Positions 1 to 60,091 of a stretch of 64,000 nt of DNA are shown here, piece after piece. The DNA lies in IMG/VR virus record IMGVR_UViG_3300050821_002540, positions 1 to 64,000 of that record; one strand, 5' to 3'. The translations under genes were made by a program, and so were the position numbers. Numbering within the stretch: the stretch's first letter is position 1; the number at the start of each line of letters is the position of its first letter. The stretch comes from a virus. A model generated the notes under the pieces. The model worked only from the letters and a program-made list of their open reading frames with translations, ran no database searches and had not been told where the DNA came from.

Positions 1-372
1 GCCCCTACCCCCGAGCGGAGCGTTAACGACGCTCCGGCCGCGTCGAAGCCGACCGCGTCGAAGCCGACCGCGTCGAAGCCGACCGCGACGAAGCCGACTC
101 CCCGGAAGCGCGCGCCGAAGCCGGTCGCCGCTCCGTTTACCCCTTCTGAGCTAGCGGCGCGCGCTCTCGCCGTAGCGCCTCCCGCGTCCGCTATCGTCGG
201 CTACGTCGCGTACCTTAACCGCGTCGTAGGCGACGGGACGCTCTCCTTCCCTGACGGGGAGCCGGTCGGAAAGCTCTCGCCCCGCGAACTCCGCCTACTC
301 GCGCTCTCGATTAAGGGGTACGGCGCGTACCAGAAGTCGCCGGAGCGGCTCGCGGCTCGCGGACTCGTCTAG
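1..372 (+). CDS. 5'-truncated Ala/Pro/Lys-rich protein, paralog of the 22409 gene; almost free of TG/CA dinucleotides
   Basis: Frame 1 is open from base 1 to TAG 370-372 (APTPERS...ELRLLALSIKGYGAYQKSPERLAARGLV*). It shares RLLAL-x4-Y-x2-(Y/F)QKSPE-x2-AAR with the 22409 protein. Absent from the ORF track because no start lies in the window. Confidence 0.75.
   Translation, partial: APTPERSVNDAPAASKPTASKPTASKPTATKPTPRKRAPKPVAAPFTPSELAARALAVAPPASAIVGYVAYLNRVVGDGTLSFPDGEPVGKLSPRELRLLALSIKGYGAYQKSPERLAARGLV
40..99 (+). repeat. 15-bp tandem repeat GCGTCGAAGCCGACC x4 encoding ASKPT
   Basis: Three exact copies and one variant copy, read directly. Confidence 0.9.
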
Positions 373-380
373 GCCCTACC

Positions 381-418
381 GCGTAGGCCCTACGGCTAGC
401 TAGCCGTAGGGCCTACGC
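381..418. repeat. Perfect 38-bp palindrome (terminator, cruciform or end-processing site)
   Basis: GCGTAGGCCCTACGGCTAG followed by its exact reverse complement, just after the stop at 372. Confidence 0.85.
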
Positions 419-444
419 CCTTCGTACGGAGCGCGCGACGAGAG

Positions 445-830
445 CTGAGCCTGAGGCCCTGCCCCTCTGGGGTGGGGCCTCCTGGCTGCCCAGCCTCAGG
501 GCAGGCAGACAGCTGCCTGGGACAGCCAGGCAATTTTCAGACAATAATGTCTGTCTGTTTTCCCAGACAGGCAGACAGCCAGGCAGACAATTGCCACAGG
601 CAATTTTCAGTGGGCAGTGCCCAATGCCGCGAGTTGCTCTGTTATCCTGTCTTGAGCCAAACTTGAGTTTGAGCTCAAATTCTCTTGATCCAGTTTGCTA
701 GCGGGCTTGAGTTTTCTCCTGGCTATCTAGTTCTCTGGCAACCAGCCAAAGAACTCCAGTCTAGTTCTCCTGGCTATCTAGTTAGCCTGGAATTTGGAAC
801 CCAAATTCCATCTAGTTCTCCTGTTTTTGT
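445..830. repeat. Non-coding region with short repeats (CAGACA; TCTAGTTCTC; TTCTCCTGGCTATCTAGTT x2)
   Basis: Repeats read directly; only low-quality ORFs; hairpin GGAATTTGG/CCAAATTCC near 789-809. Confidence 0.6.
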
Positions 831-1512: not shown

Positions 1513-1613
1513 CAGGGTAGGATCATCCTACCCTCAGGGTAACCAGGGTAGGTATAGTCGACTACACATACCCTGCCTACCCTCATCCTACCCTGCCCGC
1601 GACCAGGGTAGGT
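1513..1613. repeat. CAGGGTAGG/CCTACCCT iteron-like cluster; candidate replication origin
   Basis: About eight copies in both orientations within 100 bp, directly after the primase-helicase stop. Confidence 0.6.
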
Positions 1614-3643
1614 CACTTTTCCATAGCCTCCCACCCCTTTTCAGTGACAGTATGCCACGTTGTCTTGCCCCGTACAGGCTCCGTACGTGCAACGAAACCG
1701 GCGTCAATTGCAGCCTTTCGGATAGCCGCGCGGCGGTTCTTGTCGCCACCAATCAGGGCATCAAACTCAACGCCAGAGTACCTACCATCCTCTCCACCAT
1801 CACCCTTTAGTGCAAGGGCACGAAGCCCCTTCATTGCGTCAGGCACCACTCGCGGCCGTACAATGCCATCAGCAGACACCTCTACAACAAGCGAGCCTGG
1901 CTCCGTTCCAGACGAGGTACATGACAGGATTCCAGCTGCGCGGGTACCTGGCAGCTCACCACCAGAGCACCCCATTCGCACGGAACCAGGGCGGTCTTTT
2001 GTCAATGTAAGGTTGCTCCATCCAGAGACTCCTACACCGATTGGCTCGACATTCTCAACAAGATATGACGCACCATTCACCACGTTGAGCTTCATGACGC
2101 CACCCATTGCGTACCTGGAGCCACCTACCGAGGCAGCCTCTTTTGTCACATGGTCAGTGGCAATTGTACACACACCCCGGCCAAGCAGTGGGCGCACTAG
2201 GGCAGACCGGAACGCCGTTGCTGAGTCATTGTCCTTGACAGCCCAGCCGAACACCCCATACGCAGCAGTGACCCCATTGTGTATGACAATATCGGGGCAC
2301 CATGACACACACGCTGCCATGACATCCATAGCAGACCCTCGCGAGTCGGGTGTGGCAAACATGAACAGGTCCTCATCACCAAGCAGCGAGGCATCAAGTC
2401 CTGCGTTAAGGAGGCGGTTGCCACAGTCACCACCGTCACCCTCTTCCCAGTCAATCCATATGACTGACCGGCCCCGCGACAGCGATTCCTTCACTAGCCA
2501 CACAAGCAGCATGTCCTTGCCAGACTCTGTCTCACCATAGACAGTATGCTCCTTGCCAGCGTAGAACAGGCACTGTCCATCACCACGCTCACCATACACG
2601 GGCACGGCACGCGTGTACGTGCCATCGATGACGCCACTGAAGTTGAACCACACCGACGACTCGTCGTCACCCAGCTCACTACCATTGTCGGCATCACCAT
2701 CGGCACCACCCAGCTCTGAGAGCCTGGCTCCGGGAGTGTGACGCCAGCCACCCGTTGGGATGGCAGCACCAGCAAGGCCAGCACGGTCCCATGGGTCCGT
2801 GCTATCCCATGAGCGGAGCTGTCCACGGAGCACAGCAAGCTCAAGACAGTCAACAACCTCCTTGTCGCGCATGCCACGGTCATGAGCATCACGTGCCCAG
2901 GCAAATATGGCACCCCTCTGAGCACCAGAGCCAGCCGAGAGCACCTCTGACCACAGCCCACCAGCATCCGCCACCTCACTACCACTAGCCACCCCAGCAG
3001 CGGACGGGTGGGAGGCACGGTACATGGACAGGACCTCAGCGAAATGTCCTACAGGAGACAGCTGGCGGTTGCTGCCTACCCACTGGTAAGCACGGCCAGA
3101 AGGGTGCCGTGAGGGGGCAACGCCAATGAAGCCATTGGACTTGACCTGGCCACCTGGTATGTCACCCTGGCGTGGCCAGCCTGATGCCTCCAGCCCCCTG
3201 GCGTCATACAGGTGGTGCTCACCACCATCCCGGCCAGTGCGTGAGGAAACGTACTCTGGCTCATCAACATCCCACTGTTCCCATACAGATGGGTGGTCGA
3301 TGTCGCACACGAGCAGGCCTGAGCGCGGAGAGGTGATGAGCCCAACACGAGACCCGGCCCTCCACTCGTCAATTGACCGGTGAGACTCACGCTCCACAGT
3401 CGCGTATGACCAGCCAGCCTCATAACAGGGCATCTTGTTGCCATTGTATGAGCGCCATGGGATGGGCCAGAAGCCAGCGTCCAGGTACTCATGGGCGGCA
3501 GAGCGACAGTCAAGTCCAGAGACATCTGGCACAATGAGCGGGGGCTTTACGCCGCGCCCGCGCGGGGGTATACTCGGTGGCATAGGTGCCTCCTGAATGG
3601 TCATGGCAGCCTTTCTGGGGTAGTGGGAGTGGGGCCGTGGCAT
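1613..3643 (-). CDS. Bifunctional primase-polymerase (Prim-Pol) fused to a RecA/AAA-type helicase
   Basis: N-terminal AHEYLDAGFWPIP, LVCDID, TGRDGGEHHLY and APSRHPSG.AYQW motifs; C-terminal Walker A GETESGKD and a DH motif. Confidence 0.85.
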   Translation of the reverse strand: MPRPHSHYPRKAAMTIQEAPMPPSIPPRGRGVKPPLIVPDVSGLDCRSAAHEYLDAGFWPIPWRSYNGNKMPCYEAGWSYATVERESHRSIDEWRAGSRVGLITSPRSGLLVCDIDHPSVWEQWDVDEPEYVSSRTGRDGGEHHLYDARGLEASGWPRQGDIPGGQVKSNGFIGVAPSRHPSGRAYQWVGSNRQLSPVGHFAEVLSMYRASHPSAAGVASGSEVADAGGLWSEVLSAGSGAQRGAIFAWARDAHDRGMRDKEVVDCLELAVLRGQLRSWDSTDPWDRAGLAGAAIPTGGWRHTPGARLSELGGADGDADNGSELGDDESSVWFNFSGVIDGTYTRAVPVYGERGDGQCLFYAGKEHTVYGETESGKDMLLVWLVKESLSRGRSVIWIDWEEGDGGDCGNRLLNAGLDASLLGDEDLFMFATPDSRGSAMDVMAACVSWCPDIVIHNGVTAAYGVFGWAVKDNDSATAFRSALVRPLLGRGVCTIATDHVTKEAASVGGSRYAMGGVMKLNVVNGASYLVENVEPIGVGVSGWSNLTLTKDRPGSVRMGCSGGELPGTRAAGILSCTSSGTEPGSLVVEVSADGIVRPRVVPDAMKGLRALALKGDGGEDGRYSGVEFDALIGGDKNRRAAIRKAAIDAGFVARTEPVRGKTTWHTVTEKGWEAMEK

Positions 3644-3655
3644 GGCCCCACTGCC

Positions 3656-3868
3656 TTAACCATGTGCGGAGCGTGGCCGGGAACGGCTGATGTGGTACTG
3701 AAGCTCTGCTATGGAGCAGAAGTCAGCACCGCACTTGCAATGAGTAATGGTGCCTACACGCCTTGCATAAGCAAGCCTGTTGCTTGCGCTAATCATGTCC
3801 TTTGTCTCCTGGGACAGCTTGTGGCCACGGGGACGGCCACGGGGACGGCCAGTTGGCTTGTACGGCAT
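3656..3868 (-). CDS. Small DNA-binding protein (AT-hook-like GRPRGRP, NUMOD3-like SQETKDMIS, Cys/His finger)
   Basis: Motifs in the translation; GGGAGG RBS and an upstream promoter. Confidence 0.65.
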   Translation of the reverse strand: MPYKPTGRPRGRPRGHKLSQETKDMISASNRLAYARRVGTITHCKCGADFCSIAELQYHISRSRPRSAHG

Positions 3869-3897
3869 GATGCCTCCCGGTGAGAGGTGAGGGTTTA

Positions 3898-3926
3898 ATC
3901 CTACCCTACCCGCGAGCGCGCGTCTA
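3898..3926 (-). promoter_or_regulatory. Leftward promoter TAGACG-N17-TAGGAT
   Basis: Matches the repeated phage promoter consensus; precedes the 3868 and primase genes. Confidence 0.65.
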
Positions 3927-3945
3927 CCCCAGAAATCAGCAGGAC

Positions 3946-3974
3946 TTTACGCAGCCCCGGCGGCCGGGTAGGCT
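3946..3974 (+). promoter_or_regulatory. Rightward promoter TTTACG-N17-TAGGCT, divergent from the leftward one
   Basis: Same GGG-TAGGCT-AG -10 context as the other copies. Confidence 0.6.
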
Positions 3975-3980
3975 AGGCGT

Positions 3981-4100
3981 AGCCCGGCCGGGACTCGCCT
4001 CCACGGCTGGGCTGGGGCTGAGGGCCAGTACCCTTGCATAGCCAGCTCCCCCCAGCAGGCTAGCCTGACGGGAATACCCTCAGCCCCACCCTGGAGGCGA
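3981..4100 (+). ncRNA. Structured leader or sRNA with anti-RBS loop ACTCGCCTCC
   Basis: Stem AGCCCGGCCG/CGGCTGGGCT; second stem GGGGCTGAGGG/CCCTCAGCCCC; alternative pairing with TGGAGGCGA at 4092-4100. Confidence 0.45.
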
Positions 4101-4318
4101 AGGAGGCGACATGCAGTCATACAGCAATGGCGCGGGACCAGCGTTCCACAATGGCCCATCACTACAGTCACCAGACACGCACTGGCATGCCCTGGCATGT
4201 GGGCCGGTGGTGTTCCAGTGAGGTCACCACATCTTAATAACAGTGTACCGGGTATGACCAGGCTGGTACACAGGCTCCAGTACATCGCAGGATTCGCGAT
4301 TGGCTTTGGGGGTGCAGT

Positions 4319-4492
4319 ATGGGTGCTCAGCCTAACTCTCCACTGACAGTAAACCTTGCCCATGAGACCCTGGAATTGTGGATCTGTGGAATCTGCAAGG
4401 CAATTACAGCCAAAGAGGACAGGCAGTTCCACATTGACTGGCACGATGCCCTGGTTAACACGATGGCAATGGTGGCACATGGGAACCCCTGA
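4319..4492 (+). CDS. Small CxxC...HxxWH zinc-binding protein
   Basis: Manual translation ...WICGICKAITAKEDRQFHIDWHDAL... Confidence 0.5.
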   Translation: MGAQPNSPLTVNLAHETLELWICGICKAITAKEDRQFHIDWHDALVNTMAMVAHGNP

Positions 4493-4706
4493 CCCACCCT
4501 ACCCTCAGGATGAGCTGACAGGAGTGCTCAACAGTGTACTGCCGCCTGAGGTGCAGGGACGTGACCGTACCGAGTACGTAGCAGTAGGCATTGCACTGAA
4601 CAAGTTCTTTGCGATAAAATATGAGGACCTGACAATGGATGACCTTGACAAAATCCTGCGTGAGGTGTTCGACAAGGGGTACAACTGTCACAAGCTCGGG
4701 CAATGA
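4479..4706 (+). CDS. Hypothetical protein
   Basis: 3' part of ORF 4356-4706; ATGA-coupled to the next gene. Confidence 0.55.
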   Translation: MGTPDPPYPQDELTGVLNSVLPPEVQGRDRTEYVAVGIALNKFFAIKYEDLTMDDLDKILREVFDKGYNCHKLGQ

Positions 4707-5248
4707 CAAGGGTGACTGGCATTGGCTTTGAGCTGATGGGAGGAAGTAGGCTGGTGAGGTTCCGGACAACATTCAGCGCACCTTACTGGATGGCTGACCA
4801 CCCAGGTGAGCGCACAACATTTGCTGTAGCTATGTGGAGACAGATGGCTGTAGATGCAGGTCTTGAGCCACAAGGACAGCCGGAATACACCTACACCTAT
4901 GATGTTGACTCAATCATGATTGCGGCTTCTGGTGAAGTTGAGCCTACAACACAGACAATTGTAAACAGCATACTGCCTCCTGACAATGCATGGACTTTTG
5001 ACTTGCCGGCGGTTATGCTGGATGGTCAGGAAGTACAATGGCACTACGATAATGAGCCGCTTGTACCTGAGCTGCCGATGCTCCAGGATGCCCAGGGCAG
5101 CTTTACTGGGTTCTTTGACCAGCCATTTGAGACAGTAGTAAGGACACTGTTCGGCATCCCGGAGGCAGCATATGAGGATTTTGATGATGGCTGGGAATAT
5201 GGTAATGACGCTGCTCATTCAGAGAACTACGGAGACAAGAAGCTGTGA
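4703..5248 (+). CDS. Hypothetical acidic protein
   Basis: 181-aa ORF in a coupled operon. Confidence 0.65.
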   Translation: MTRVTGIGFELMGGSRLVRFRTTFSAPYWMADHPGERTTFAVAMWRQMAVDAGLEPQGQPEYTYTYDVDSIMIAASGEVEPTTQTIVNSILPPDNAWTFDLPAVMLDGQEVQWHYDNEPLVPELPMLQDAQGSFTGFFDQPFETVVRTLFGIPEAAYEDFDDGWEYGNDAAHSENYGDKKL

Positions 5249-5341
5249 CGATTGAAGGGAGCTATGTGTCTGCTGTATGGGACATTGCCGGATTTGCGCT
5301 GCTGATTGTAGTCATTGCCATTTACCGGAAGGGACGCAAGC

Positions 5342-5863
5342 GTGACGACTCCTGAGCTCCACCTGATTGGTGTTGATCCTGGCGGCACAACAGGAGTGAC
5401 CAGGCTGACTGTGCCAAGGCTCTCCATCTTTGGCGATGAACCACCACAGATTATTGAGTGGGACTACTTTGCCCTCAATGGCCCGGAGGCCAAGCAGGCA
5501 ACAGAACTCGCGAGGTATACAAGGGAAACGCAGAGCCTCTCATACAAGATTGGGCCTGCAATCGTGAGTGAGCTGTGGACACAGGACCCACGGTTTAAGA
5601 GCACGGACCCTGAGGCACTCAGCCCAGCAAGAATTAACGCAATGCTTGAGCTACTGCTTTACCAGAACCTGCTTGGTGATGCAACGCTTACGTTCCAGCC
5701 GAGGGGCATACGCCTGTCCATTGACGAGGACAAGCTGCGCAAGATGCGTATGTATGTCAAGCACAAGGACATACGTGCATCAACTCAGCATGCTGTTATG
5801 GGGCTGCGAAGGGCACGACAGAGCCTTGAGTTCGCAACAAAACTATGGCCGGAGGCAGTATGA
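5342..5863 (+). CDS. RuvC-like Holliday junction resolvase
   Basis: LIGVDPGGTTG N-terminal motif, central Glu, C-terminal HKDIRASTQHA helix. Confidence 0.75.
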   Translation: MTTPELHLIGVDPGGTTGVTRLTVPRLSIFGDEPPQIIEWDYFALNGPEAKQATELARYTRETQSLSYKIGPAIVSELWTQDPRFKSTDPEALSPARINAMLELLLYQNLLGDATLTFQPRGIRLSIDEDKLRKMRMYVKHKDIRASTQHAVMGLRRARQSLEFATKLWPEAV

Positions 5864-6004
5864 TAAACTGGCGCAAGTCATCAAGGAGCATGTACACAGG
5901 GAACTGCATCGAGGTTTCCAGTACAGGCACAGTAAACATCCGTGACAGTGGAGATAGGAGAACAACAATAAGCATTACAGTGAAGGGATGGGTGAAGTTC
6001 ACCA

Positions 6005-6175
6005 ATGATCTGCGAGCCGTGTAGGGACATGGACCACCCGAACTGTCCAGAGCTTGAGCGACAGCTCAGGCAGGACCTGACCAAGGAAGACAAGGCAGGC
6101 AGCCACAGATGTACCTGCCAGCACCACCCAGGGAGAGGGAATGGGCAAGAGAGACCACACGTGCAGCTACCGTGA
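6005..6175 (+). CDS. Small Cys/His protein (CEPC...H..C...CTCQH)
   Basis: Manual translation, 56 aa. Confidence 0.55.
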   Translation: MICEPCRDMDHPNCPELERQLRQDLTKEDKAGSHRCTCQHHPGRGNGQERPHVQLP

Positions 6176-6260
6176 AGTGAGCAGATGGACCAGCGGTGGC
6201 AAGACGTACGTGAAGATGGAGTGCTACAACTGCAGTAACAGCTACACAAAGGAGGCATGA
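6141..6260 (+). CDS. Small Cys/His protein (H.C...CYNC)
   Basis: 39-aa ORF with GAGGG RBS, ATGA-coupled to the next gene. Confidence 0.45.
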   Translation: MGKRDHTCSYREVSRWTSGGKTYVKMECYNCSNSYTKEA

Positions 6261-6358
6261 TGAAGTGCGAACATGTCAGTGACCTGAACAGGCCGTGCGG
6301 TGGCTGTAACTGCGGTGACTGCACGACATGCTGCGAATGTAGCCAGTGTCTTCCGTAG
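6257..6358 (+). CDS. Cys-rich micropeptide (9 Cys in 33 aa)
   Basis: AAGGAGG RBS; MMKCEHVSDLNRPCGGCNCGDCTTCCECSQCLP. Confidence 0.55.
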   Translation: MMKCEHVSDLNRPCGGCNCGDCTTCCECSQCLP

Positions 6359-6387
6359 GAAAAACTTCCTGTATTGCCCCAATACAG

Positions 6388-6416
6388 TAGCTTTGTCCTC
6401 GCGTACGCGGTAGGCT
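6388..6416 (+). promoter_or_regulatory. Promoter TAGCTT-N17-TAGGCT
   Basis: Repeated consensus followed by a hairpin and GGAGGCGA RBS. Confidence 0.75.
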
Positions 6417-6455
6417 AGCCGTAGCGCCCCGCTACGGGGCGCGCAGGAGGCGAGA

Positions 6456-6845
6456 ATGAAAACGGCAGACGACCGGCTTAGCAGGGCCGCCAGCGCTATC
6501 TGGCGCTGGCGCACTGCCGACCCGGACCCGATGGGTGACCCAAGCGGTGACTGCGGCGGCCTGATCGCAGTATCAGACAGGAACCACGTACTGAAGGCCG
6601 TGGCTGCGGCGGGGTACGCTAACCCCGGCGCGTATAACGCGGACCTGAGGAGCAGGATGGTAGGTGCGGACGGGAAGATGTCCCAGAACGTCTACTACCT
6701 GCTCTGTACGCTGGAGATCGAGAGCGTCTGCCCGAAGTGCGGGGCGGCGCTGAACGTGACCAGCCACTACACCCGGTGCTACGGCGGTGGCTGGGACACA
6801 TTCGAGAAGTGCCCCGTCTGCGACTACGCGGAGGTTTACGTCTGA
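6456..6845 (+). CDS. Hypothetical protein with C-terminal zinc ribbon
   Basis: CPKC...CPVC; strong RBS. Confidence 0.7.
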   Translation: MKTADDRLSRAASAIWRWRTADPDPMGDPSGDCGGLIAVSDRNHVLKAVAAAGYANPGAYNADLRSRMVGADGKMSQNVYYLLCTLEIESVCPKCGAALNVTSHYTRCYGGGWDTFEKCPVCDYAEVYV

Positions 6846-7039
6846 TGCAGATCTCGAAAAGGTGCCCTTCATGCACGAAGACATTCGTGATTGAGGTGCC
6901 GGACAATGAGTTTGAGGCATGGCAGGGCGGTGTCCTCATCCAGAACGCAATGCCGAGCGTCCCAGCCGATGTTCGTGAGCAGCTCGTTTCCGGCATCGAC
7001 TCCAAGTGCTGGGATGAGATGTTTAGCGAGGCCGAGTAA
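6845..7039 (+). CDS. Small phage protein (CPSC...LIQNAMP...REQLVSG)
   Basis: TGATG coupling with the upstream gene. Confidence 0.7.
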   Translation: MQISKRCPSCTKTFVIEVPDNEFEAWQGGVLIQNAMPSVPADVREQLVSGIDSKCWDEMFSEAE

Positions 7040-7375
7040 ACAGCGGGGCGGCCGGGCAACCGGCCGCCCTCTGTCGTAGGGGCTGGAACCATCCAGCCCT
7101 GACGATGGAGGCGAAATGTTTATTGTCATCACCACCAGCCCAAGTGACTCACCGGAAGACATTGATGAGTACTACGGCCCGTTCGCAACCGCAACGGATA
7201 CAGGCGACAGCCTGACGGATGCCGTCACCTGGATGAACAAGTGGGTCCAGGCACCGGTAACCGCACGGGCAATCGATCTGTTCCAGCCCTCCAACTGAAC
7301 ACAGCGGGGCGGCCCTGCTCAAGGGCCGCCCTCTGTCCCGGTGGCTGGACTCCAGCCACCAGGATGGAGGCGAGA
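7040..7375 (+). repeat. Duplicated two-hairpin intergenic module (about 7040-7115 and 7301-7375)
   Basis: ACAGCGGGGCGGCC-loop-GGCCGCCCTCTGT, then GGCTGGA-loop-TCCAGCC, then TGGAGGCGA and ATG, in both copies. Confidence 0.8.
7116..7298 (+). CDS. Hypothetical protein
   Basis: GGAGGCGA RBS; 60 aa. Confidence 0.65.
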   Translation: MFIVITTSPSDSPEDIDEYYGPFATATDTGDSLTDAVTWMNKWVQAPVTARAIDLFQPSN

Positions 7376-7729
7376 ATGGGAACTGACCAGGGTGGATTCA
7401 CTGGCCGTACAAAGAGCGAGCCAGGATTCCACTACCACAACGGGAATGCGTACCTTGACCAGGAATGCGCTTGCGAGCTGCGCCCGGCAACCATAGACAA
7501 TGTGAAGGCACACGCCCTGAAGCACTACGATGAGGGCGGCTGGGACGTTGTCGTCGAGACAATGTCCGACAAGAGCATCCAGGAGACGCTCCTGATGATG
7601 GATGCGGGTGGCCACGACTTCACGGAGCCGTGCATCACCCTCAAGGACGCGACCGAGCACTCACTGCTCCGGGTGCTCGTAAGCATCTGGTCTGACCAGC
7701 AGGCCGACGCCAGAAACAGCGCGTTCTGA
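7376..7729 (+). CDS. Hypothetical protein
   Basis: GGAGGCGAG RBS; HALKHYDEGGWDVVVET motif. Confidence 0.7.
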   Translation: MGTDQGGFTGRTKSEPGFHYHNGNAYLDQECACELRPATIDNVKAHALKHYDEGGWDVVVETMSDKSIQETLLMMDAGGHDFTEPCITLKDATEHSLLRVLVSIWSDQQADARNSAF

Positions 7730-7962
7730 TGGCTGCTGTCAGGCAGAACCCGGTGCAGGAACCGGATGTGCCTGGGCGATGCGCTGGCGTGAAGACGCCA
7801 ACTGGGAGGGCACCGTGCTACCTGCCCTCAAAGTGGGCCATCTTCGACCAGGACACTCCGACAACTGACGCTCCTGCCCGCTGGGCATGCAACAAGCACC
7901 TTGCCGGGAACATCGGCCACCTGGGCAGCATGGTGCTCCCCGCAGACTGGAGGCGCCAGTAA
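7729..7962 (+). CDS. Small Cys-containing hypothetical protein
   Basis: TGATG and TAATG coupling on both sides. Confidence 0.6.
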   Translation: MAAVRQNPVQEPDVPGRCAGVKTPTGRAPCYLPSKWAIFDQDTPTTDAPARWACNKHLAGNIGHLGSMVLPADWRRQ

Positions 7963-8231
7963 TGGCTCTGGTTGGAGAGTACTGCGAAGACTACCCGTGC
8001 TGCGGGCACACCCCGCAGAACCCATGCGCTCGTCAGTGGTACGACGACCCACAGGCAGTACGCAGGCACCTCGGCTGCGACCATGAGGCTGGCTACTGCG
8101 AAGATGAGCAGTACGACGACAACGATGACGAGATTGAAGACTGGGACCCAGGACCAGAAGTCGATGACCAGGGCGGCATGTCAGAAGTTCAGGATGCCTG
8201 GCTCGATGACTGGTCAGTCTACGGTGAATGA
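7962..8231 (+). CDS. Small acidic Cys-rich protein (CEDYPCCGH)
   Basis: TAATG coupling; acidic tail. Confidence 0.65.
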   Translation: MALVGEYCEDYPCCGHTPQNPCARQWYDDPQAVRRHLGCDHEAGYCEDEQYDDNDDEIEDWDPGPEVDDQGGMSEVQDAWLDDWSVYGE

Positions 8232-8294
8232 CCAGTAGCGAATCTGGGGCCGAAAGGTCCCATTTTCGTGCCCGGACTGGGCGCAGTACAATGC

Positions 8295-8323
8295 TAGCTT
8301 TGTACCGCCCGCGCGGGTAGACT
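8295..8323 (+). promoter_or_regulatory. Promoter TAGCTT-N17-TAGACT
   Basis: Repeated consensus. Confidence 0.75.
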
Positions 8324-8364
8324 CGGGGGAGCGGCCGGTCCCGGCCGCAGTAGGAGGCGAGAAA

Positions 8365-8499
8365 ATGGGAAGGTATATCGCATACGACCCCAGCGGTGAA
8401 AGGCTGGAGGGCGTCAAGGAGCTTACTGACGCTGAGGTCAAGTGGCTTGAGGAGCTGGGGTTTACATTCACCCCATTCGAGGGGCCGGTGTGTGAGTAA
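8365..8499 (+). CDS. Small hypothetical protein
   Basis: GGAGGCGAG RBS; 44 aa. Confidence 0.6.
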   Translation: MGRYIAYDPSGERLEGVKELTDAEVKWLEELGFTFTPFEGPVCE

Positions 8500-8699
8500 T
8501 GGATATCGCACCCCCAAGAAGGGGCCCACTCTCCAGGACCCTGGAAGACCCCAAGGATGAGGCAATCCGGGAGCTGGCTCACGTCGCCAGGTGCCTCCTT
8601 GAGGCAGCAACAGCCGACGGGAATGCCACAGTACCGGGTGCATTCAAGATTGCCGTAAGCAATAAGATCGAGTACTACGCCAGTAAGGCGGAGTCGTGA
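8499..8699 (+). CDS. Hypothetical protein
   Basis: TAATG coupling; 66 aa. Confidence 0.6.
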   Translation: MDIAPPRRGPLSRTLEDPKDEAIRELAHVARCLLEAATADGNATVPGAFKIAVSNKIEYYASKAES

Positions 8700-11260: not shown

Positions 11261-11300
11261 AGGCGTAGGCCGCCTAGCGGCGGCCAGTCAGGAGGCGAAA

Positions 11301-11895: not shown

Positions 11896-11968
11896 CAGAG
11901 GGTCGTATGAGGCAAGTACGGGTGGGCTGATCCCCCGCCAGGTGTGGGTTCGAATCCCACCCCTCTCA
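11896..11968 (+). tRNA. Degenerate tRNA-like gene, anticodon GAT (Ile)
   Basis: T arm GTGGG-TTCGAAT-CCCAC; D stem GTAT/GTAC; anticodon loop CTGATCC; acceptor AGAGGG/CCCTCT with a 1-72 mismatch and non-canonical C37. Confidence 0.5.
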
Positions 11969-11982
11969 CGAAAGGAGCAGTC

Positions 11983-13376: not shown

Positions 13377-13407
13377 CGTCGCGAACGCGGCGAAAGCAGG
13401 AGGCGAG

Positions 13408-13707
13408 ATGGGATTTATGTACCTTCACCTGAAGTCGGATGACCAGGGGAAGATTCACGCAACGGTACAGCCCGATGGCACGCTACCGTTTGTCACTCTA
13501 GGGTCGGAAAACACCCGTTGGTCTGGGCGGCCGTTCGCTGTCTTCCAGATCGAGAGCTTTCAAGGCCTGACGTCAATCGATACCAGGGACCTGGAGCTTG
13601 AGGTCATCAACAGGCTCGGGGAAGATGGCCTGCGCTCACGGCTGGCCAGCGAGCTTTCAACGAATGACCTGCTCGGGATGCTTCGTGACCGCATCCCTCC
13701 CGCGTAG
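13408..13707 (+). CDS. Hypothetical protein
   Basis: GGAGGCGAG RBS. Confidence 0.65.
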   Translation: MGFMYLHLKSDDQGKIHATVQPDGTLPFVTLGSENTRWSGRPFAVFQIESFQGLTSIDTRDLELEVINRLGEDGLRSRLASELSTNDLLGMLRDRIPPA

Positions 13708-13715
13708 GAGGCGAA

Positions 13716-14919: not shown

Positions 14920-15570
14920 ATGACTGACGACACCTCCACAACCACCATCAACAGCGACGAGGCCGGCAGCGGCCCGCTCGACCTGTCCAGGCCGGTCAGC
15001 CGTGACCGGTACATGAACACCATCACGGGCCTGTACCAGTTCTTCGAGGGCGAGCTCAAGCCAAGGAATTCCTGGTGCAACGAGCGGTTCCGCTACTTCG
15101 AGGAGCTCATTCCAGAGCTGGTCGTTGACCGGAGCAACCGGCACTACACCGCCGAGCTGGACTTCACCAGTGTGCCCGAGGATGCCGACTACGTGGCCCG
15201 GCTGCGTGACACCAGGGGCAAGTTGCTCTGGTACGCCAGCTCCACAATCATCAGCCTATCTCAGACCAACGAGGCACTCCAGGCGGCCGGAATGCCTGGG
15301 TACAAGGCGGAGAATTCCGGAACCCGCATGTCCCTCGAACTCGACAACATCAGGATCACCGTCGCAGCCAGTACCTCGAACGAGGCAAGGGTGTGGATTC
15401 AGGACCACCTTACCGACTTCCTCACGCGCATGATCGATGGGAAGGGCCCAATGGACACCGACCTGTACGTCCCTGGCTCCATCACCTTCGGCGATCCCGA
15501 ATACATCCACACGGCTAGCCTGCCGTCTGTTGACGTCAAGGACACGATCCGTCCCGGCTTCATCGGCTGA
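14920..15570 (+). CDS. Hypothetical protein
   Basis: Long ORF with strong GC3 codon bias. Confidence 0.7.
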   Translation: MTDDTSTTTINSDEAGSGPLDLSRPVSRDRYMNTITGLYQFFEGELKPRNSWCNERFRYFEELIPELVVDRSNRHYTAELDFTSVPEDADYVARLRDTRGKLLWYASSTIISLSQTNEALQAAGMPGYKAENSGTRMSLELDNIRITVAASTSNEARVWIQDHLTDFLTRMIDGKGPMDTDLYVPGSITFGDPEYIHTASLPSVDVKDTIRPGFIG

Positions 15571-15583
15571 CCCCCGGCCCCTG

Positions 15584-15629
15584 AGCGTCACGTCTGGCTG
15601 GTACTCGCCTCCCGGCCAGGCGTGGCGCT
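15584..15629 (+). ncRNA. Long hairpin with anti-RBS loop ACTCGCCTCC
   Basis: Stem AGCGTCACGTCTGGCTGG/CCGGCCAGGCGTGGCGCT with G-U pairs; the 10-mer matches the 3993 copy. Confidence 0.45.
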
Positions 15630-16022: not shown

Positions 16023-16102
16023 AGGGGTAGCGCCCCGGCCGGGGGAATGATAGACTCCTGAAAAGTGAGGAACCCTGGCCGGGGCCAGTGCTAGGAGGCG
16101 AA

Positions 16103-18722: not shown

Positions 18723-18761
18723 AGTTCTAGGGCCGTCCCCGGCCGCAGTAGGAGGCGAGAA

Positions 18762-22866: not shown

Positions 22867-23171
22867 TCCTGTCCGGGGCGAAGTGACCGACCGGCTTGCC
22901 GCGTAGCCCGCAGGGGCATACGGTCTTCCCCGGACAGGACCAATGGTTGGAGCACCTGGATCACTGATCAGCTCCAGGTCCACGGAGGGCAGCATGCGAG
23001 AGCCGTGCTTCCGGCAGGGGTCAAACCCCAAGCCCTCCACGCAGGCCGTGGGATCCCAAGGGTGTAGCGAGAACGGCTCTGGGTATTGGCGGTTCGATTC
23101 CGCCCCGCTACACCCACCTAAACGTCCAGCCCCTGGTGGCAACCATGGTCGGGTGCCGGGGGCTGGACCCA
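22867..23171 (+). ncRNA. Array of five stem-loop or tRNA-fragment-like RNAs, each ending in CCA
   Basis: 7-13 bp closing stems; T-arm motifs GGCGG-TTCGATT-CCGCC and GGGG-TCAAA-CCCC. Confidence 0.55.
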
Positions 23172-23241
23172 GGGGCGTTGGTGTATGGGTAGCACGCTTA
23201 GGTTTGATCTAAGAGCACCAGGTTCGAGTCCTGCAGCCCCA
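23172..23241 (+). tRNA. tRNA-Gln(TTG)-like gene, imperfect
   Basis: D arm GTGT-ATGGGTA-GCAC; anticodon arm CTTAG-GTTTGAT-CTAAG; T loop TTCGAGT; only 5 acceptor pairs. Confidence 0.6.
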
Positions 23242-23262
23242 CGGCCAATAACTGGAGGAACA

Positions 23263-37865: not shown

Positions 37866-37917
37866 AAGCCTAGGGTACGAAACGTCCAGTCGCCTAGATG
37901 GAACGGAGGTGAGTTGC

Positions 37918-38586: not shown

Positions 38587-38609
38587 AGTAGGAGCGCTAG
38601 GAGGCGAGA

Positions 38610-38873
38610 ATGAAGAAGTCAGAGCTGAAGAGGAAGCTTCGCCAGGTGCAATGGCAGCTCGAGGAACTACAAACCAGGAATCAGGTAGTGAAGAGGGCAG
38701 CACTCAGGGAGCGAATCATCCAGCTACTGAATGATGCCAAGCTCAATACCAACGACGAGACAAAGCTGTGCCAGCTTCAGTGCGAGATCGACAATCTTGC
38801 CGAGGGACGATGGGATGGCCCGGTACCGGCAGATCACCCGGACATAATGGGAGGCGAGAATGAAAGACAATGA
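38610..38873 (+). CDS. Coiled-coil hypothetical protein
   Basis: GGAGGCGAG RBS. Confidence 0.65.
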   Translation: MKKSELKRKLRQVQWQLEELQTRNQVVKRAALRERIIQLLNDAKLNTNDETKLCQLQCEIDNLAEGRWDGPVPADHPDIMGGENERQ

Positions 38874-39471
38874 TAGAGAGCCCAAGGTCGCAGAATGCGC
38901 CGACCAGCTCACACACAAGACTAATGCCATAGCCCACCTAATCGGTGAAGGCTATCAGTACAAGGATCGTGAATGGCTGACCGAGGCACTAGGCCTGATC
39001 CCAATACTAATCACAGACGCAAGAGAGCTCAGCGAGATGCTCGATGACGTCATCTACGGCGACATGCTGGAGGCGAAGAAAGTGAAGAACAAGCGCAAGA
39101 AGAGGACACGCAAGATGGAGGCAAGGCTCAGGGGATGCCTAGCAGTCATCGCGACGGGATCCACTGACAGGACCGAGAGGTACAGGCTCATAGCCGAGCT
39201 GGAAGACCTGGATGGCGACATTACGAATGGCACCAGTCACTGGAATGGTGTGCGCTTCGACTTCCCTCCGGACGACTGGGACCGCCAGGCCGACTGGTCC
39301 GCTACAATCAATGAGGCGACGGCTAGCCAGCTCGTAAACCTCACCGGTGAGTACATTGACACCTGCTCGGTATGTGGCATGGATGTTCCCGGCCCGCACC
39401 CACCAGTAGGCACTCCGCAAGCCAATACTCCGCACTACGTCGGCCCTCTTACAGTGAAGGACATCTTATAG
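38860..39471 (+). CDS. Hypothetical protein ending TTA TAG
   Basis: GGAGGCGAG RBS; last gene of the plus-strand arm. Confidence 0.65.
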   Translation: MKDNDREPKVAECADQLTHKTNAIAHLIGEGYQYKDREWLTEALGLIPILITDARELSEMLDDVIYGDMLEAKKVKNKRKKRTRKMEARLRGCLAVIATGSTDRTERYRLIAELEDLDGDITNGTSHWNGVRFDFPPDDWDRQADWSATINEATASQLVNLTGEYIDTCSVCGMDVPGPHPPVGTPQANTPHYVGPLTVKDIL

Positions 39472-39756
39472 GGCCGGGGCTGTAACCCCGAAGTAGTCGT
39501 CATCGATGGCGACAACGGCCCCGGTGCCCTGCCACTGACAAGTGACCAGCTGGGTATCGGGGCCTGCCCATCCCGTGGTATCAATGTCGTAATGGTATGC
39601 TCCGGGCCCATCATTAGTTGGTCCTACAATTGTATTGACTGAACCGGCTCCAGCCCGGTACTTGAATGTTATTGTTGTTGGGTTAGTCGGCACTCCAGCC
39701 GTGTTAACAAATGCGGCCGACGACCTAACCATTGAGCCGCTCGTGTACAGGTTCAT
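39466..39756 (-). CDS. Small Ig-like virion protein
   Basis: Beta-rich; G.YHYDIDTTG motif; last gene of the late operon. Confidence 0.65.
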   Translation of the reverse strand: MNLYTSGSMVRSSAAFVNTAGVPTNPTTITFKYRAGAGSVNTIVGPTNDGPGAYHYDIDTTGWAGPDTQLVTCQWQGTGAVVAIDDDYFGVTAPAL

Positions 39757-41726
39757 TCCGAGTTCCTTATCGTCACCGGGCTGATGTTCCTATTGCTGAC
39801 CGATACAGACGCAGATGAATTGCTCACTTCGACTGATCCTGCTAGTGACTGAGTTACCGTCACCTGTCCAGGGAACTGCGATGCCCCGAGTGTAAAGACA
39901 AATACGTCAGCCCCAGCTCCGCTATCCAGGAACGCCACCGGCATGCTGTATGTCAGCAGTTCAGTGCCTGAGCCACTATCAGACAGAACTACTGGGATGT
40001 TGAATAGCAGGGACTCGGTACTGACACCAGAGTCAGTCAGGGCAACCAGTGAGGACAGGCCAAGTACGTCTGTCCCAGCACCAGAGTCAGCTAGCAGTAC
40101 AGAGCTAGTGATCTTCAGGCTATCGGTGCCTGTGCCAGAGTCAGCTAGGACAATTGGTGTTACCGACAGTACTGAGAGTGTGTCAGTACCAGAGCCAGAG
40201 TCAGTGAGCGCAACTGGCTGGGCAGATACAATTGTAAGTACGTCAGTGCCAGTGCCGGAGTCCGCTAGCCCTGGGATCATGCCGAGCGCGTCGGTACCCG
40301 TTCCGGCGTCCGCGAACGGTACCCCCGCCAGGACGCCTAGAACGTCCGTAGCCGCGCCGGAATCCCCTAGGGAGGGGAGGATACCTAGCGCGTCCGTTCC
40401 CGTCCCTACGTCGCTTATAGAGACGCCTACGGCTACTGCGAAAACGTCCGTCCCCGCCCCGGTATCGGACATGGTGACCGGGGTAACACTGAGCACGGCC
40501 AGGCTGTCAGTACCAGTACCTGAGTCAGTGAGGCCAGGCATAACACCGAGCGTATCGGTACCAGCACCAGTATCCGTCAGGGCCGTCGGCTGGACAACAG
40601 CCAGCACATCTGTGCCAGCCCCAGAATCAGCTAGTGACACTACAGAGGTGACCGCAAATGTCTCTGTGCCAGAGCCAGAGTCGGTGAGCGGCGTCGGCTG
40701 AACAATCGCGAGGGCTTCTGTGCCTGACCCGGAGTCAGTAAGTGCTACTGGTGTGACTGACAGCACAGCCAGGGAGTCGGTGCCTGTACCCGAGTCTGTT
40801 AGCCCTGGCATGACGCCCAGGGCATCTGTCCCAGAACCAGAGTCCGTAAGCGCTGTCGGCTGGGTTATAGCCAGGACTTCTGTCCCGGTACCGGAGTCAG
40901 CTAGCGGTACTGTTGAGGTTACTGCCAGTGTCTCGGTACCGGATCCAGAGTCGGAAAGCTGTATCGCCGAGGAAGCAGCCGTTACCTGAACCGGAAGGAA
41001 CTGCTGGTGATGGAACTTTTCAGTCCATGTCCTACCAGGCATTACCTGCTGTGGCAACTGGATTGTTACAGGACCACTAGATAGCTTGAACGCTACAAGT
41101 AGCAGGCCCCATGTAGCGGCGCCAGAGATGGCCCATGACAGGGACTCAGTCCCACCCGTACTATTGCCATAGGCAGTAGCTAGCTGGGCAGCACTATTTG
41201 AACCTGAGTTCTTTAGTGGTGTGTATCCAGTCTCTGTATATGTAGTGGAGTAACCGGCATCACCAACAGAGGCAAGCAGGAACTCATTTGCTGCCGTAGA
41301 GCTGTATGCTGTACCGCCAGTTATGGTAGCCGGGGAGGCAGTACCAGTATTGTGTCCGGGAGACCCATCAAGCATTGACGTTGTATTACCAGCAAGCAGT
41401 CCTGACACTTCAAGCAGTACCGGGACCGACCCAAAGTTTGTCCCATTAGTGCAAGTTATTAGTGGTCCAGTTCCGACATCACCTGATGGGGTATCCATTG
41501 CCCAGATCGAGATACCGCCCTGAGCCGACTGGTAGGCAAGCAGCCCTACCTGCGTAAAGCTATTGAGCGCTGCATCCTTAACTGACGTTGGGGCGGTAGA
41601 GCTGCTTGAGTCCAGGGACACTATGGCAATAAGCTTGGACCCGGATGTAAGCGTGCCATATGTAGCCGTACAGTTTCCCGATCCCTGTACTGTACCCAGG
41701 ACAGACTGGAGGACCGTGTAGGCCAT
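39753..41726 (-). CDS. Virion-associated repeat protein with about 20 (L)xDSGxGT(D/E) repeats
   Basis: 16-20 aa repeats in the translation; Ser/Thr/Gly-rich. Confidence 0.75.
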   Translation of the reverse strand: MAYTVLQSVLGTVQGSGNCTATYGTLTSGSKLIAIVSLDSSSSTAPTSVKDAALNSFTQVGLLAYQSAQGGISIWAMDTPSGDVGTGPLITCTNGTNFGSVPVLLEVSGLLAGNTTSMLDGSPGHNTGTASPATITGGTAYSSTAANEFLLASVGDAGYSTTYTETGYTPLKNSGSNSAAQLATAYGNSTGGTESLSWAISGAATWGLLLVAFKLSSGPVTIQLPQQVMPGRTWTEKFHHQQFLPVQVTAASSAIQLSDSGSGTETLAVTSTVPLADSGTGTEVLAITQPTALTDSGSGTDALGVMPGLTDSGTGTDSLAVLSVTPVALTDSGSGTEALAIVQPTPLTDSGSGTETFAVTSVVSLADSGAGTDVLAVVQPTALTDTGAGTDTLGVMPGLTDSGTGTDSLAVLSVTPVTMSDTGAGTDVFAVAVGVSISDVGTGTDALGILPSLGDSGAATDVLGVLAGVPFADAGTGTDALGMIPGLADSGTGTDVLTIVSAQPVALTDSGSGTDTLSVLSVTPIVLADSGTGTDSLKITSSVLLADSGAGTDVLGLSSLVALTDSGVSTESLLFNIPVVLSDSGSGTELLTYSMPVAFLDSGAGADVFVFTLGASQFPGQVTVTQSLAGSVEVSNSSASVSVSNRNISPVTIRNSE

Positions 41727-58991: not shown

Positions 58992-60091
58992 ATTACTCGC
59001 GTCCTTGCCTTGCGGGTAATCTTGTTGTTCTCCACCCTCTGCCTCAGGTCAGAGATACCGGCTCCGGCCGGTGGGTCACTAACACCATACCCGCCACGGT
59101 TCTGTGTTACTGCCTTCTGCGGGGCCGCCTGACCACCATATGCATTAGGCTCCTGGGTAAGCCACACAACGGCCTCTGCAATAGCTAGCTGCCTTGCGAG
59201 GGATGGCACATCATTGACCACTATTGGGGCGTTGTTGGAGTGTATGGCGGCCGCAGTACCGAGCTGGCCACGGAGGACGTTTATCTGCCTTCGGGCATAG
59301 AGGGTGCCGCTTCCGTGAGATGTCAGGATTGATGCATCCCAGGCCCTCTTGACGACCATTGTATTCCCGACAATACTTTGTATTAGTATCCATTCTGAGT
59401 CTACCTGGAGAACCTCTCCCTGGGTGAACTTCGTGCCATCAGCCACCATGACAATATTGTCTGCAGCGCTAGCGGATGAAAGCCCAGAGTAAGAAATTGT
59501 TGTGTCTATAAATCGTGTTCCTGTTATTATCATCCTCTCCGAGTCAACAATTATGACGTCGCCAACCCCGGTAGACACGCCATCGCTGACGGTTAGGGTA
59601 AGGTCAGTAGCAAGAGCGGAGCTAGCGAGGGTACCGGCCGCCCGCGTCTGCATCCAGTAGCCAAACGTACCCGTTATGGCAATGTCAAGCTGTGGAGTGT
59701 TATTATAGCCAAAGGCAAAGTTCATATCCCGGCGAAGCTCAATCCTGGTAAACGGAGGCCCCTCATTGATCGGATGGCAGATAACAGCCGATACCGGGAT
59801 TACAACAGGATTAGGAAGCAGGCTGCCGGTAGTTACCTGGGTTGGTATTGCAGCCAGCTCGTACTGGTCTAGCCATACCTTCCAGGGGTATGAGTACTGG
59901 TAGTTTGGCCAGTCCCATCGCCGCGTAGCGTCGAGCGGGTAGAACTTCCTGCCGGTCAGGGACTCAACAGCATCGGTAGCGGAACAGATGGCACGGTCAA
60001 CCTGATTGTCGGTGTACGCAGCCTGCTTGACATCGAGTGCCCGGCGTACCTGCTCCCGAGTCGTATAGCATGGCTGATTAACTATAGCCAT
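58988..60091 (-). CDS. Head-to-tail adaptor with duplicated inserted beta repeats
   Basis: YTTREQV...A...VE.LTGRKFYP; GTFGY; two VDSE repeats. Confidence 0.7.
   Translation of the reverse strand: MAIVNQPCYTTREQVRRALDVKQAAYTDNQVDRAICSATDAVESLTGRKFYPLDATRRWDWPNYQYSYPWKVWLDQYELAAIPTQVTTGSLLPNPVVIPVSAVICHPINEGPPFTRIELRRDMNFAFGYNNTPQLDIAITGTFGYWMQTRAAGTLASSALATDLTLTVSDGVSTGVGDVIIVDSERMIITGTRFIDTTISYSGLSSASAADNIVMVADGTKFTQGEVLQVDSEWILIQSIVGNTMVVKRAWDASILTSHGSGTLYARRQINVLRGQLGTAAAIHSNNAPIVVNDVPSLARQLAIAEAVVWLTQEPNAYGGQAAPQKAVTQNRGGYGVSDPPAGAGISDLRQRVENNKITRKARTRVI

Follow-up and report, generated by a model that had tools for sequence, protein, structure and literature searches.

A start-associated ribosome-binding tag and two hairpins with a complementary loop in a soil phage genome

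Background

Control of translation by RNAs that pair with the Shine-Dalgarno (SD) sequence is as such already known. The C-rich hairpin loops of RNAIII, RsaE/RoxS and the actinobacterial 6C RNA pair with the G-rich ribosome-binding sites (RBSs) of several mRNAs, and in phage T4 the RegB endoribonuclease and the RegA repressor, both made by the phage, shut down many early mRNAs through an RBS motif. The c4 antisense RNA of phages P1 and P7 exposes loops that pair with downstream mRNA, including its RBS, and block its expression. c4 RNA (RF01695) is encoded upstream in the operon of its target (PMC8198154), and in icaR of Staphylococcus aureus a C-rich anti-SD in the UTR pairs with the SD, blocks the initiation complex and yields an RNase III substrate (PMC3868564). 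Start-associated motifs that extend the SD past the part legible to rRNA have been unexplained in mycobacteriophages since 2011. The SAS/ESAS elements of Cluster K mycobacteriophages follow a 13-bp consensus, GGGATAGGAGCCC, with at most 2 deviations (PMC3203893), and the function of SAS is still unexplained (PMC3203893; PMC12699233).

Here we describe a tag of comparable kind, GGAGGCGA, and two hairpins (HP1 and HP2) with loops complementary to it in an uncultured soil phage from IMG/VR. The record has a total length of 73,693 bp and its first 64 kb (64,000 nucleotides) are the stretch of DNA analysed here, referred to as the window; features past its end are given as genome positions.

The tag resembles SAS in being a short asymmetric motif made of an SD core plus positions unable to pair with 16S rRNA, in lying a few nucleotides ahead of the starts, almost always ATG, of 11-19 non-structural genes, and in keeping one orientation, with rare opposite copies and often with inverted repeats upstream. 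The two motifs differ in sequence (GGGATAGGAGCCC versus GGAGGCGA) and the tag fails the SAS consensus. The 17-bp inverted repeats of Cluster K ESAS are conserved in sequence and were judged not to be RNA hairpins, whereas this phage has varied GC-rich stems and compensating changes between HP1 and HP2. The single reverse SAS copy in phage Anaya, in the 385-bp gap from gp96 to gp97, does lie in a 10-nt loop between GCGCGG and CCGCGC (L104 39857-39890; Anaya 59856-59889). The 11 Cluster K phages that were aligned share this stem; their loops, however, are anti-SAS in 5 cases only, C/U-rich in 3 and unrelated in 3, and some Cluster K records annotate a CDS at the hairpin, so the parallel is weak.

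The c4 RNA controls one operon, icd-ant, for immunity, whereas the tag of this phage is common to about a dozen genes, and Rfam searches of the window at the gathering score and of 3850-4330 at E up to 10 returned no match to c4 (RF01695). What likens HP2 to icaR is its late position in an operon where the tag is borne by the first genes; icaR, however, belongs to the host, involves only one mRNA and uses a UCCCCUG motif, as against two paralogous hairpins and a multi-gene tag. RNAIII, RsaE/RoxS and 6C are host-encoded, carry their own terminators and act on generic SD-like targets, unlike the private extension described here, and RegB and RegA are proteins where the candidate factor in this phage is an RNA.

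Results

Genome layout and promoter cassettes

The non-structural genes are read rightward from about 4.1 to 39.5 kb and the structural genes leftward past that, with a 97-bp repeat common to both ends of the record. Diverging from the region of HP1 and its predicted promoter P1 are a 70-aa ORF (3656-3868, - strand) and the gene for a Prim-Pol (1613-3643, - strand). The 70-aa ORF contains a tandem 12-nt repeat (3826-3850) encoding GRPRGRPRG, an AT-hook-like basic motif, and has a promoter of its own (TAGACG, 17 nt, TAGGAT; about 3898-3930, - strand). The DnaE polymerase has 49% identity to DnaE of Cluster D mycobacteriophages and promoters of the TAGGCT type are typical of actinobacteria, and on these two grounds the host of the phage is probably an actinobacterium. 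Ten tagged or neighbouring genes gave no useful match in Pfam. A second DNA run was identical in sequence over 4297-4800, and the one RNA sequencing run contributed two 151-nt contigs only (3427-3577 and 3610-3760), which leave the hairpin uncovered.

Nine promoters on the + strand form a family consisting of TAGCTT, about 17 nt and GGTAGGCTAG(G/C)CGTAG. The tag comes after 8 of the 9 and thus marks the promoter-proximal genes of the non-structural arm. The order within a cassette is TAGCTT, about 17 nt, GGTAGGCTAG, a GC-rich hairpin at the predicted 5' end that differs from copy to copy, and the tag. These cassette hairpins, which have loops of 3-5 nt, look like 5' end stabilisers; loops of 10-13 nt are found only in HP1 and HP2.

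3946..3974, + strand: predicted promoter P1 (TTTACG, 17 nt, TAGGCT), start expected near 3981
3969, 6411, 8318, 11255, 13363, 16017, 37858, 38581 and 73485, + strand: starts of the -10 boxes of the promoter family

The -10 box of P1 ends at 3974, which would place the start of the transcript at the first base of the HP1 stem. A promoter at 3946 had been proposed in an initial annotation of this DNA and is retained as a prediction, with a -10/start region, GGTAGGCTAGGCGTAG, that belongs to the nine-copy + strand family but a -35 that differs from TAGCTT.

A tag ahead of non-structural genes

We counted 14 copies of GGAGGCGA on the + strand of the 64-kb window and 2 on the - strand, against an expectation of 2.58 for both strands (shuffle mean), and none of 100 shuffles reached 16. 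Twelve + strand copies, all in the 4-39 kb arm, lie 1-4 nt ahead of an ORF-opening ATG. These are the 12 sites that the initial annotation had listed ahead of start codons, and every one is present as described:

4102..4109, + strand: tag SD2, serves ATG 4111
6446..6453, + strand: tag RBS, with promoter 6411 plus a 5' hairpin upstream
7107..7114, + strand: tag RBS behind an intergenic hairpin
7366..7373, + strand: tag RBS behind an intergenic hairpin
8353..8360, + strand: tag RBS, with promoter 8318 plus a 5' hairpin upstream
11291..11298, + strand: tag RBS, with promoter 11255 plus a 5' hairpin upstream
13399..13406, + strand: tag RBS, with promoter 13363 plus a 5' hairpin upstream
13707..13714, + strand: tag RBS at a gene junction, DUF2786 gene
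16094..16101, + strand: tag RBS behind promoter 16017
18751..18758, + strand: tag RBS in a cassette 94% identical over 32 nt to 8333-8364
38600..38607, + strand: tag RBS behind promoter 38581
38850..38857, + strand: tag RBS, GGGAGGCGAG, a 10-nt match to the HP2 loop

The remaining two + strand copies are a spare at 4093 and one at 39069 inside an ORF. The latter (39069-39076, within ORF 38860-39471) is followed after 5 nt by GTG and may either mark an internal start or be due to chance. Reading the tag copy at 4002 as a - strand RBS was rejected, as no ATG, GTG or TTG comes after it on that strand.

What is constant across the tagged sites is the 8-mer and a purine run after it; upstream there is usually a GC hairpin whose sequence differs per cassette. 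The proposal that the tag is used in place of the canonical GGAGGTGA was borne out, with 14 + strand copies against a single GGAGGTGA in the window, at 37905-37914 as GGAGGTGA(GT). Since this sole canonical copy lies behind a promoter of the same TAGCTT family, it can be regarded as a natural one-base variant of the tag (GGAGGTGAG versus the tag form GGAGGCGAG), one expected to form a mismatch with the hairpin loops.

Opposite the canonical 16S tail, which is complementary to GGAGGTGA, the C of the tag meets an A, and the hairpin loop carries the matching G. We also considered that the tag might be an extended SD suited to a variant 16S tail in the host. A search for the corresponding 16S end, GGAUCGCCUCCUU, in one genome for each of 185,579 species returned 45 exact matches, 4 of which are 16S ends, in unrelated taxa, and this candidate was rejected because no lineage with a matching tail was found among these species. 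One cluster of matches in Acidobacteriota encodes GWIASFWG, which on our own reading we take to belong to a PadR-type regulator, and an Rfam scan of four GGAUCGCCUCCUU match loci gave no rRNA, the matches falling in a protein gene.

No sister phage with the tag/hairpin element was found among GenBank phages, IMG/VR or the JGI metagenomes. Neither blastn of 3600-4700 against GenBank phages nor the Prim-Pol protein and a 3-sequence profile against IMG/VR returned a relative; the Prim-Pol homologs P0002, P0003 and P0011 have 42-45% identity. The matches in JGI metagenomes have unrelated upstream DNA, and IMG/VR pattern scans with the promoter box and with the hairpin core gave unrelated or chance matches only. 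Relatives by DnaE (62-65% identity; L001-L009, records G001-G005) are without the Prim-Pol, the tag class and the anti-tag hairpins, and the copies of GGAGGCGA in G003 lie inside coding sequence. Since the tag is a perfect SD for no lineage in this search and the DnaE relatives are without it, it is private to this phage.

Two hairpins with a shared loop

Exact + strand copies of the anti-tag occur only twice in the window, in both cases in the loop of an intergenic hairpin.

3981..4013, + strand: HP1, 10-bp stem, loop GGACUCGCCUCCA; the best fold leaves a hexaloop CUCGCC
3993..4002, + strand: anti-tag core ACTCGCCTCC, complement of GGAGGCGAGT
15584..15629, + strand: HP2, 18-bp stem (3 G.U), open 10-nt loop UACUCGCCUC

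The stem of HP1 (3981-3990/4004-4013) has nine Watson-Crick pairs and one G.U and encloses a 13-nt loop, GGACTCGCCTCCA. The 10-bp stem with a tag-complementary loop that had been annotated is therefore present, but the minimum-energy fold shuts three extra pairs (GGA/UCC) with a bulged A, so that CUCGCC stays open and the UCC of the anti-tag is hidden in the hairpin's own best fold. HP2, with its anti-tag copy at 15605, occupies an 83-nt gap, 14 nt past the stop at 15570 and 25 nt ahead of ATG 15654; the small gene that begins there has a signal-peptide-like N-terminus ending LLTSC, which we take to be a lipoprotein signal. The HP2 stem is the longest in the genome-wide hairpin list, and HP1 and HP2 (11 and 18 bp) are the two longest-stemmed hairpins that carry the tag complement. 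Predicted folding energies are -24.2 kcal/mol for HP1 (z -3.9, with 0 of 200 shuffles as good) and -34.3 kcal/mol for HP2 (z -7.0), compared with -21.1 and -22.8 for the respective - strands, and this better folding on the + strand argues that both act as RNA.

HP1 and HP2 are collinear for some 50 nt, starting shortly ahead of the stem and ending beyond it at a common GG(G/C)GCTGA(G/A)GG, and on this alignment they are paralogs. The loop core ACUCGCCUCC is common to both (10/10 nt identical). Pairs were tabulated by rank from the loop, the bulged A of HP1 shifting its 3' arm by one base; among the 11 stem ranks in common, 6 pairs are unchanged, 3 differ on one side and stay paired via G.U, 2 are compensatory (C-G to U-A and A-U to C-G) and none is broken. 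With a stem divergence of about 32%, the 10 unchanged loop positions have p of about 0.02 by our own estimate from these two copies only, a weak statistical basis for stronger conservation in the loop than in the stems. Judged by the shared loop core, this pattern of substitution and the better + strand folding, HP1 and HP2 are selected RNA structures with a conserved loop, and neither DNA palindromes nor chance.

No U-run or terminator follows HP1 or HP2, which continue into GGGGCTGAGG and GAAGGACCGA respectively, and HP1 was absent from the list given by a terminator scan of 3600-8600. Accordingly no discrete small RNA can be defined, and any free sRNA would need processing. Of the own promoter and own terminator that identify an independent sRNA, HP1 has a predicted promoter and HP2 lacks one.

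The leader downstream of HP1

Three further features lie between HP1 and the first gene or form that gene.

4014..4087, + strand: central leader hairpin GGGGCUGAGGG / CCCUCAGCCCC, encloses a second promoter-like site
4093..4100, + strand: spare tag SD1, GGAGG to ATG 13 nt, pairable with the HP1 loop
4111..4221, + strand: putative 36-aa ORF, first gene past the leader, read from sequence

The central hairpin is built from an inverted repeat, I3 (14/15 complementary), appears in every leader fold and has the promoter-like site inside it (TTGCAT 4034-4039, AGGCTA 4057-4062). A spare site at 4092 with which the loop could pair had also been annotated, and we find it as the copy at 4093-4100 (TGGAGGCGA from 4092); its pairing with the loop belongs to an extended inverted repeat (3995-4017 with 4078-4100), and the anti-tag plus the 15 nt after it complements 4077-4100. 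HP1 lies 90-100 nt upstream of the two tag copies on the predicted P1 transcript and the predicted pairing varies with transcript length. In folds ending at 4101, 4110 or 4125 the anti-tag is paired with SD1 or SD2, and in those ending at 4101 or 4125 SD1 is paired with the anti-tag, whereas the 170-nt fold of 3981-4150 keeps HP1 and leaves the anti-tag 85% unpaired. Opening the true RBS in the longest leader is predicted to cost 6.2 kcal/mol on the transcript from P1 versus 5.2 kcal/mol from the inner promoter-like site. Given that the longest fold keeps HP1 and that these costs are similar, a local leader switch is possible but not robustly predicted.

Predicted pairing of the loops with the tag

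Predicted duplexes between loop and tag at the tagged sites of the window range from -16.5 to -21.7 kcal/mol, compared with a mean of about -13 kcal/mol for the loop against 18 other GGAGG sites and about -12 kcal/mol for the 16S tail on the same tagged sites. The expectation of the initial annotation that host RBSs would be matched less well agrees with these models, in which untagged GGAGG sites reach about -13 against -17 to -20 kcal/mol, and with there being no lineage with the matching G among the species searched.

The best match to the loop lies outside the window at genome 73536, behind a family promoter and a 5' hairpin, where GGAGGCGAGTCC complements 12 of the 13 HP1 loop bases (predicted -28.4 kcal/mol). 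In this leader CGAGUC of the tag pairs locally with a downstream GACUCG. The site precedes a 139-codon frame without ATG, GTG or TTG, whose start would be ATC 73549; the 97-bp end repeat falls inside this frame and may therefore reflect overlap in the assembly of a genome that is circular or permuted. The surrounding 742 nt (genome 73300-73596 plus window 1-445) are poor in TG/CA, with 0.007 per base versus 0.148 genome-wide. At 381-418, at the edge of the TG/CA-free stretch, there is a 38-bp palindrome, made of a perfect 17-bp stem on either side of AGCT.

Discussion

RNA-RNA pairing between loop and tag is the simplest account of a private tag, a matched non-canonical base, a loop kept while the stems drift and the + strand signatures of the hairpins. 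The sequence itself shows the tag class, the two hairpins with their paralogy and strand bias, and the complementarity of loop and tag. That the phage controls translation through pairing of this loop with the tag is a proposition that we hold to have about an even chance of being right, on the strength of sequence comparison and modelled folding; from these we infer transcription, where the RNAs end, intracellular pairing and which way the effect goes.

Under this proposal the private tag, GGAGGCGA(G), marks the first genes in most transcription units of the non-structural kind; HP1 would form the 5' end of the first transcript to run rightward, and HP2 would lie within the 13363 operon or at its end. 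The conserved loop ACUCGCCUCC would base-pair with the tag in competition with the 30S subunit, lowering translation of the tagged genes, and the pairing could also yield double-stranded RNA for cleavage. Within the HP1 leader the spare tag may occupy the loop in cis and the true RBS would then be free until the leader is cut or decays, while HP2 would reach other tags, either in trans or at long range. As an alternative to a freed sRNA, the elements may act within their mRNAs, as in the 5'/3' UTR pairing of icaR. What stands of the initial reading of HP1 as an anti-RBS hairpin is a selected loop that is kept in a paralog with compensating stems; its purely local form is opposed by HP2.

A more far-reaching version is that, with a private tag of 8-9 nt on the first gene in every non-structural unit, two stable hairpin RNAs from the phage's own early transcripts accumulate, titrate the tags and shut the whole class off without a protein, the TG/CA-free gene with its start at ATC 73549 being the target with the best match (12 nt). 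We regard such an RNA-only class switch as tentative and would sooner expect it to be wrong.

It is unlikely that HP1 and HP2 are ordinary structural elements (a 5' stabiliser, a U-less terminator or 3' protector, a processing site) derived by duplication of one 50-nt segment, with the complementarity to the tag a relic. A 5' GC hairpin does stand at the place of HP1 after nearly every family promoter, HP2 lies just past a stop codon and, the two being paralogs, the letters of the loop could be inherited. However, the other cassette hairpins have loops of 3-5 nt where HP1 and HP2 alone have 10-13, the loop core is identical at 10/10 positions with about 1/3 of the stem positions changed, and the loop fits the non-canonical C of the tag and has the 12-nt match at 73536.

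The leader folds bear on a second explanation, a switch acting only in cis in which pairing of the HP1 loop with the tag at 4093/4102 sets translation of the 36-aa ORF, with different outcomes for transcripts from P1 and from the inner site. The long inverted repeat (3995-4017 versus 4078-4100) and the folds ending at 4101, 4110 and 4125, which pair the anti-tag with SD1 or SD2, are as such a switch would have them, and a transcript from the inner site would be without the anti-tag. With 40 nt more of coding sequence, however, HP1 is kept and the anti-tag is 85% unpaired, and the RBS opening costs are alike (6.2 versus 5.2 kcal/mol). The second copy is also left unexplained: the tag nearest to HP2 is at 16094 and none lies within 480 nt, so a purely local leader switch is not the whole story, and we consider it rather improbable as a complete explanation.

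The authors of the Cluster K study left open whether SAS has an RNA or a protein as its ligand (PMC3203893), and a protein could likewise read the elements described here, either an RNA-binding one (a phage or host repressor, a nuclease, an antiterminator) at the tag or the loops or at both, or a DNA-binding one with GGAGGCGAGT in either orientation as an operator shortly past the promoters. A -10 box is found some 20-55 bp ahead of the copies at 4002 (- strand) and 73536, and the divergent 70-aa gene encodes the basic motif GRPRGRPRG. Against this, the fixed spacing to ATG and near-uniform orientation of the tag point to RNA, as do the G.U pairs in the stems and the strand bias; HP2 is not close to a promoter and no candidate protein family was recognised. 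We consider a protein reader distinctly improbable. Chance complementarity in GC-rich DNA is very unlikely because, although the + strand count of the 8-mer complement (2) is about the one-strand shuffle value, both copies are intergenic, in the loops of exceptional hairpins, and share a 10-mer within a collinear 50-nt paralog.

Our preferred reading, loop-tag pairing, would supply a candidate reader for a start-associated motif of this type, namely a phage-made complementary hairpin loop of which two copies are kept, their stems compensating. Provided that the pairing is real, the phage would address its own mRNAs as a class with host mRNAs less affected, and the tag and loop would lend themselves to synthetic control in actinobacteria as an RBS/anti-RBS pair that is both compact and orthogonal. 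Should the RNA-only class switch also be true, it would be an RNA counterpart of T4 RegB/RegA and the same logic could explain the start-associated sequences of mycobacteriophages.

Additional features of the genome

Two tRNA genes were observed on the + strand, a tRNA-Ile(GAT) at 11896-11969 and a tRNA-Gln(TTG) at 23171-23242. Outside the window a 9-bp hairpin at 65958-65990 (- strand, the sense strand of the late genes) has a loop, GGCCUCCUCAGGUGA, that includes the generic anti-SD GCCUCCU. In the structural arm about 12 diverged copies of a 48-60-nt repeat (40027-40964) lie inside a 657-aa ORF (39753-41726, - strand), which is probably a repetitive tail/fibre protein.
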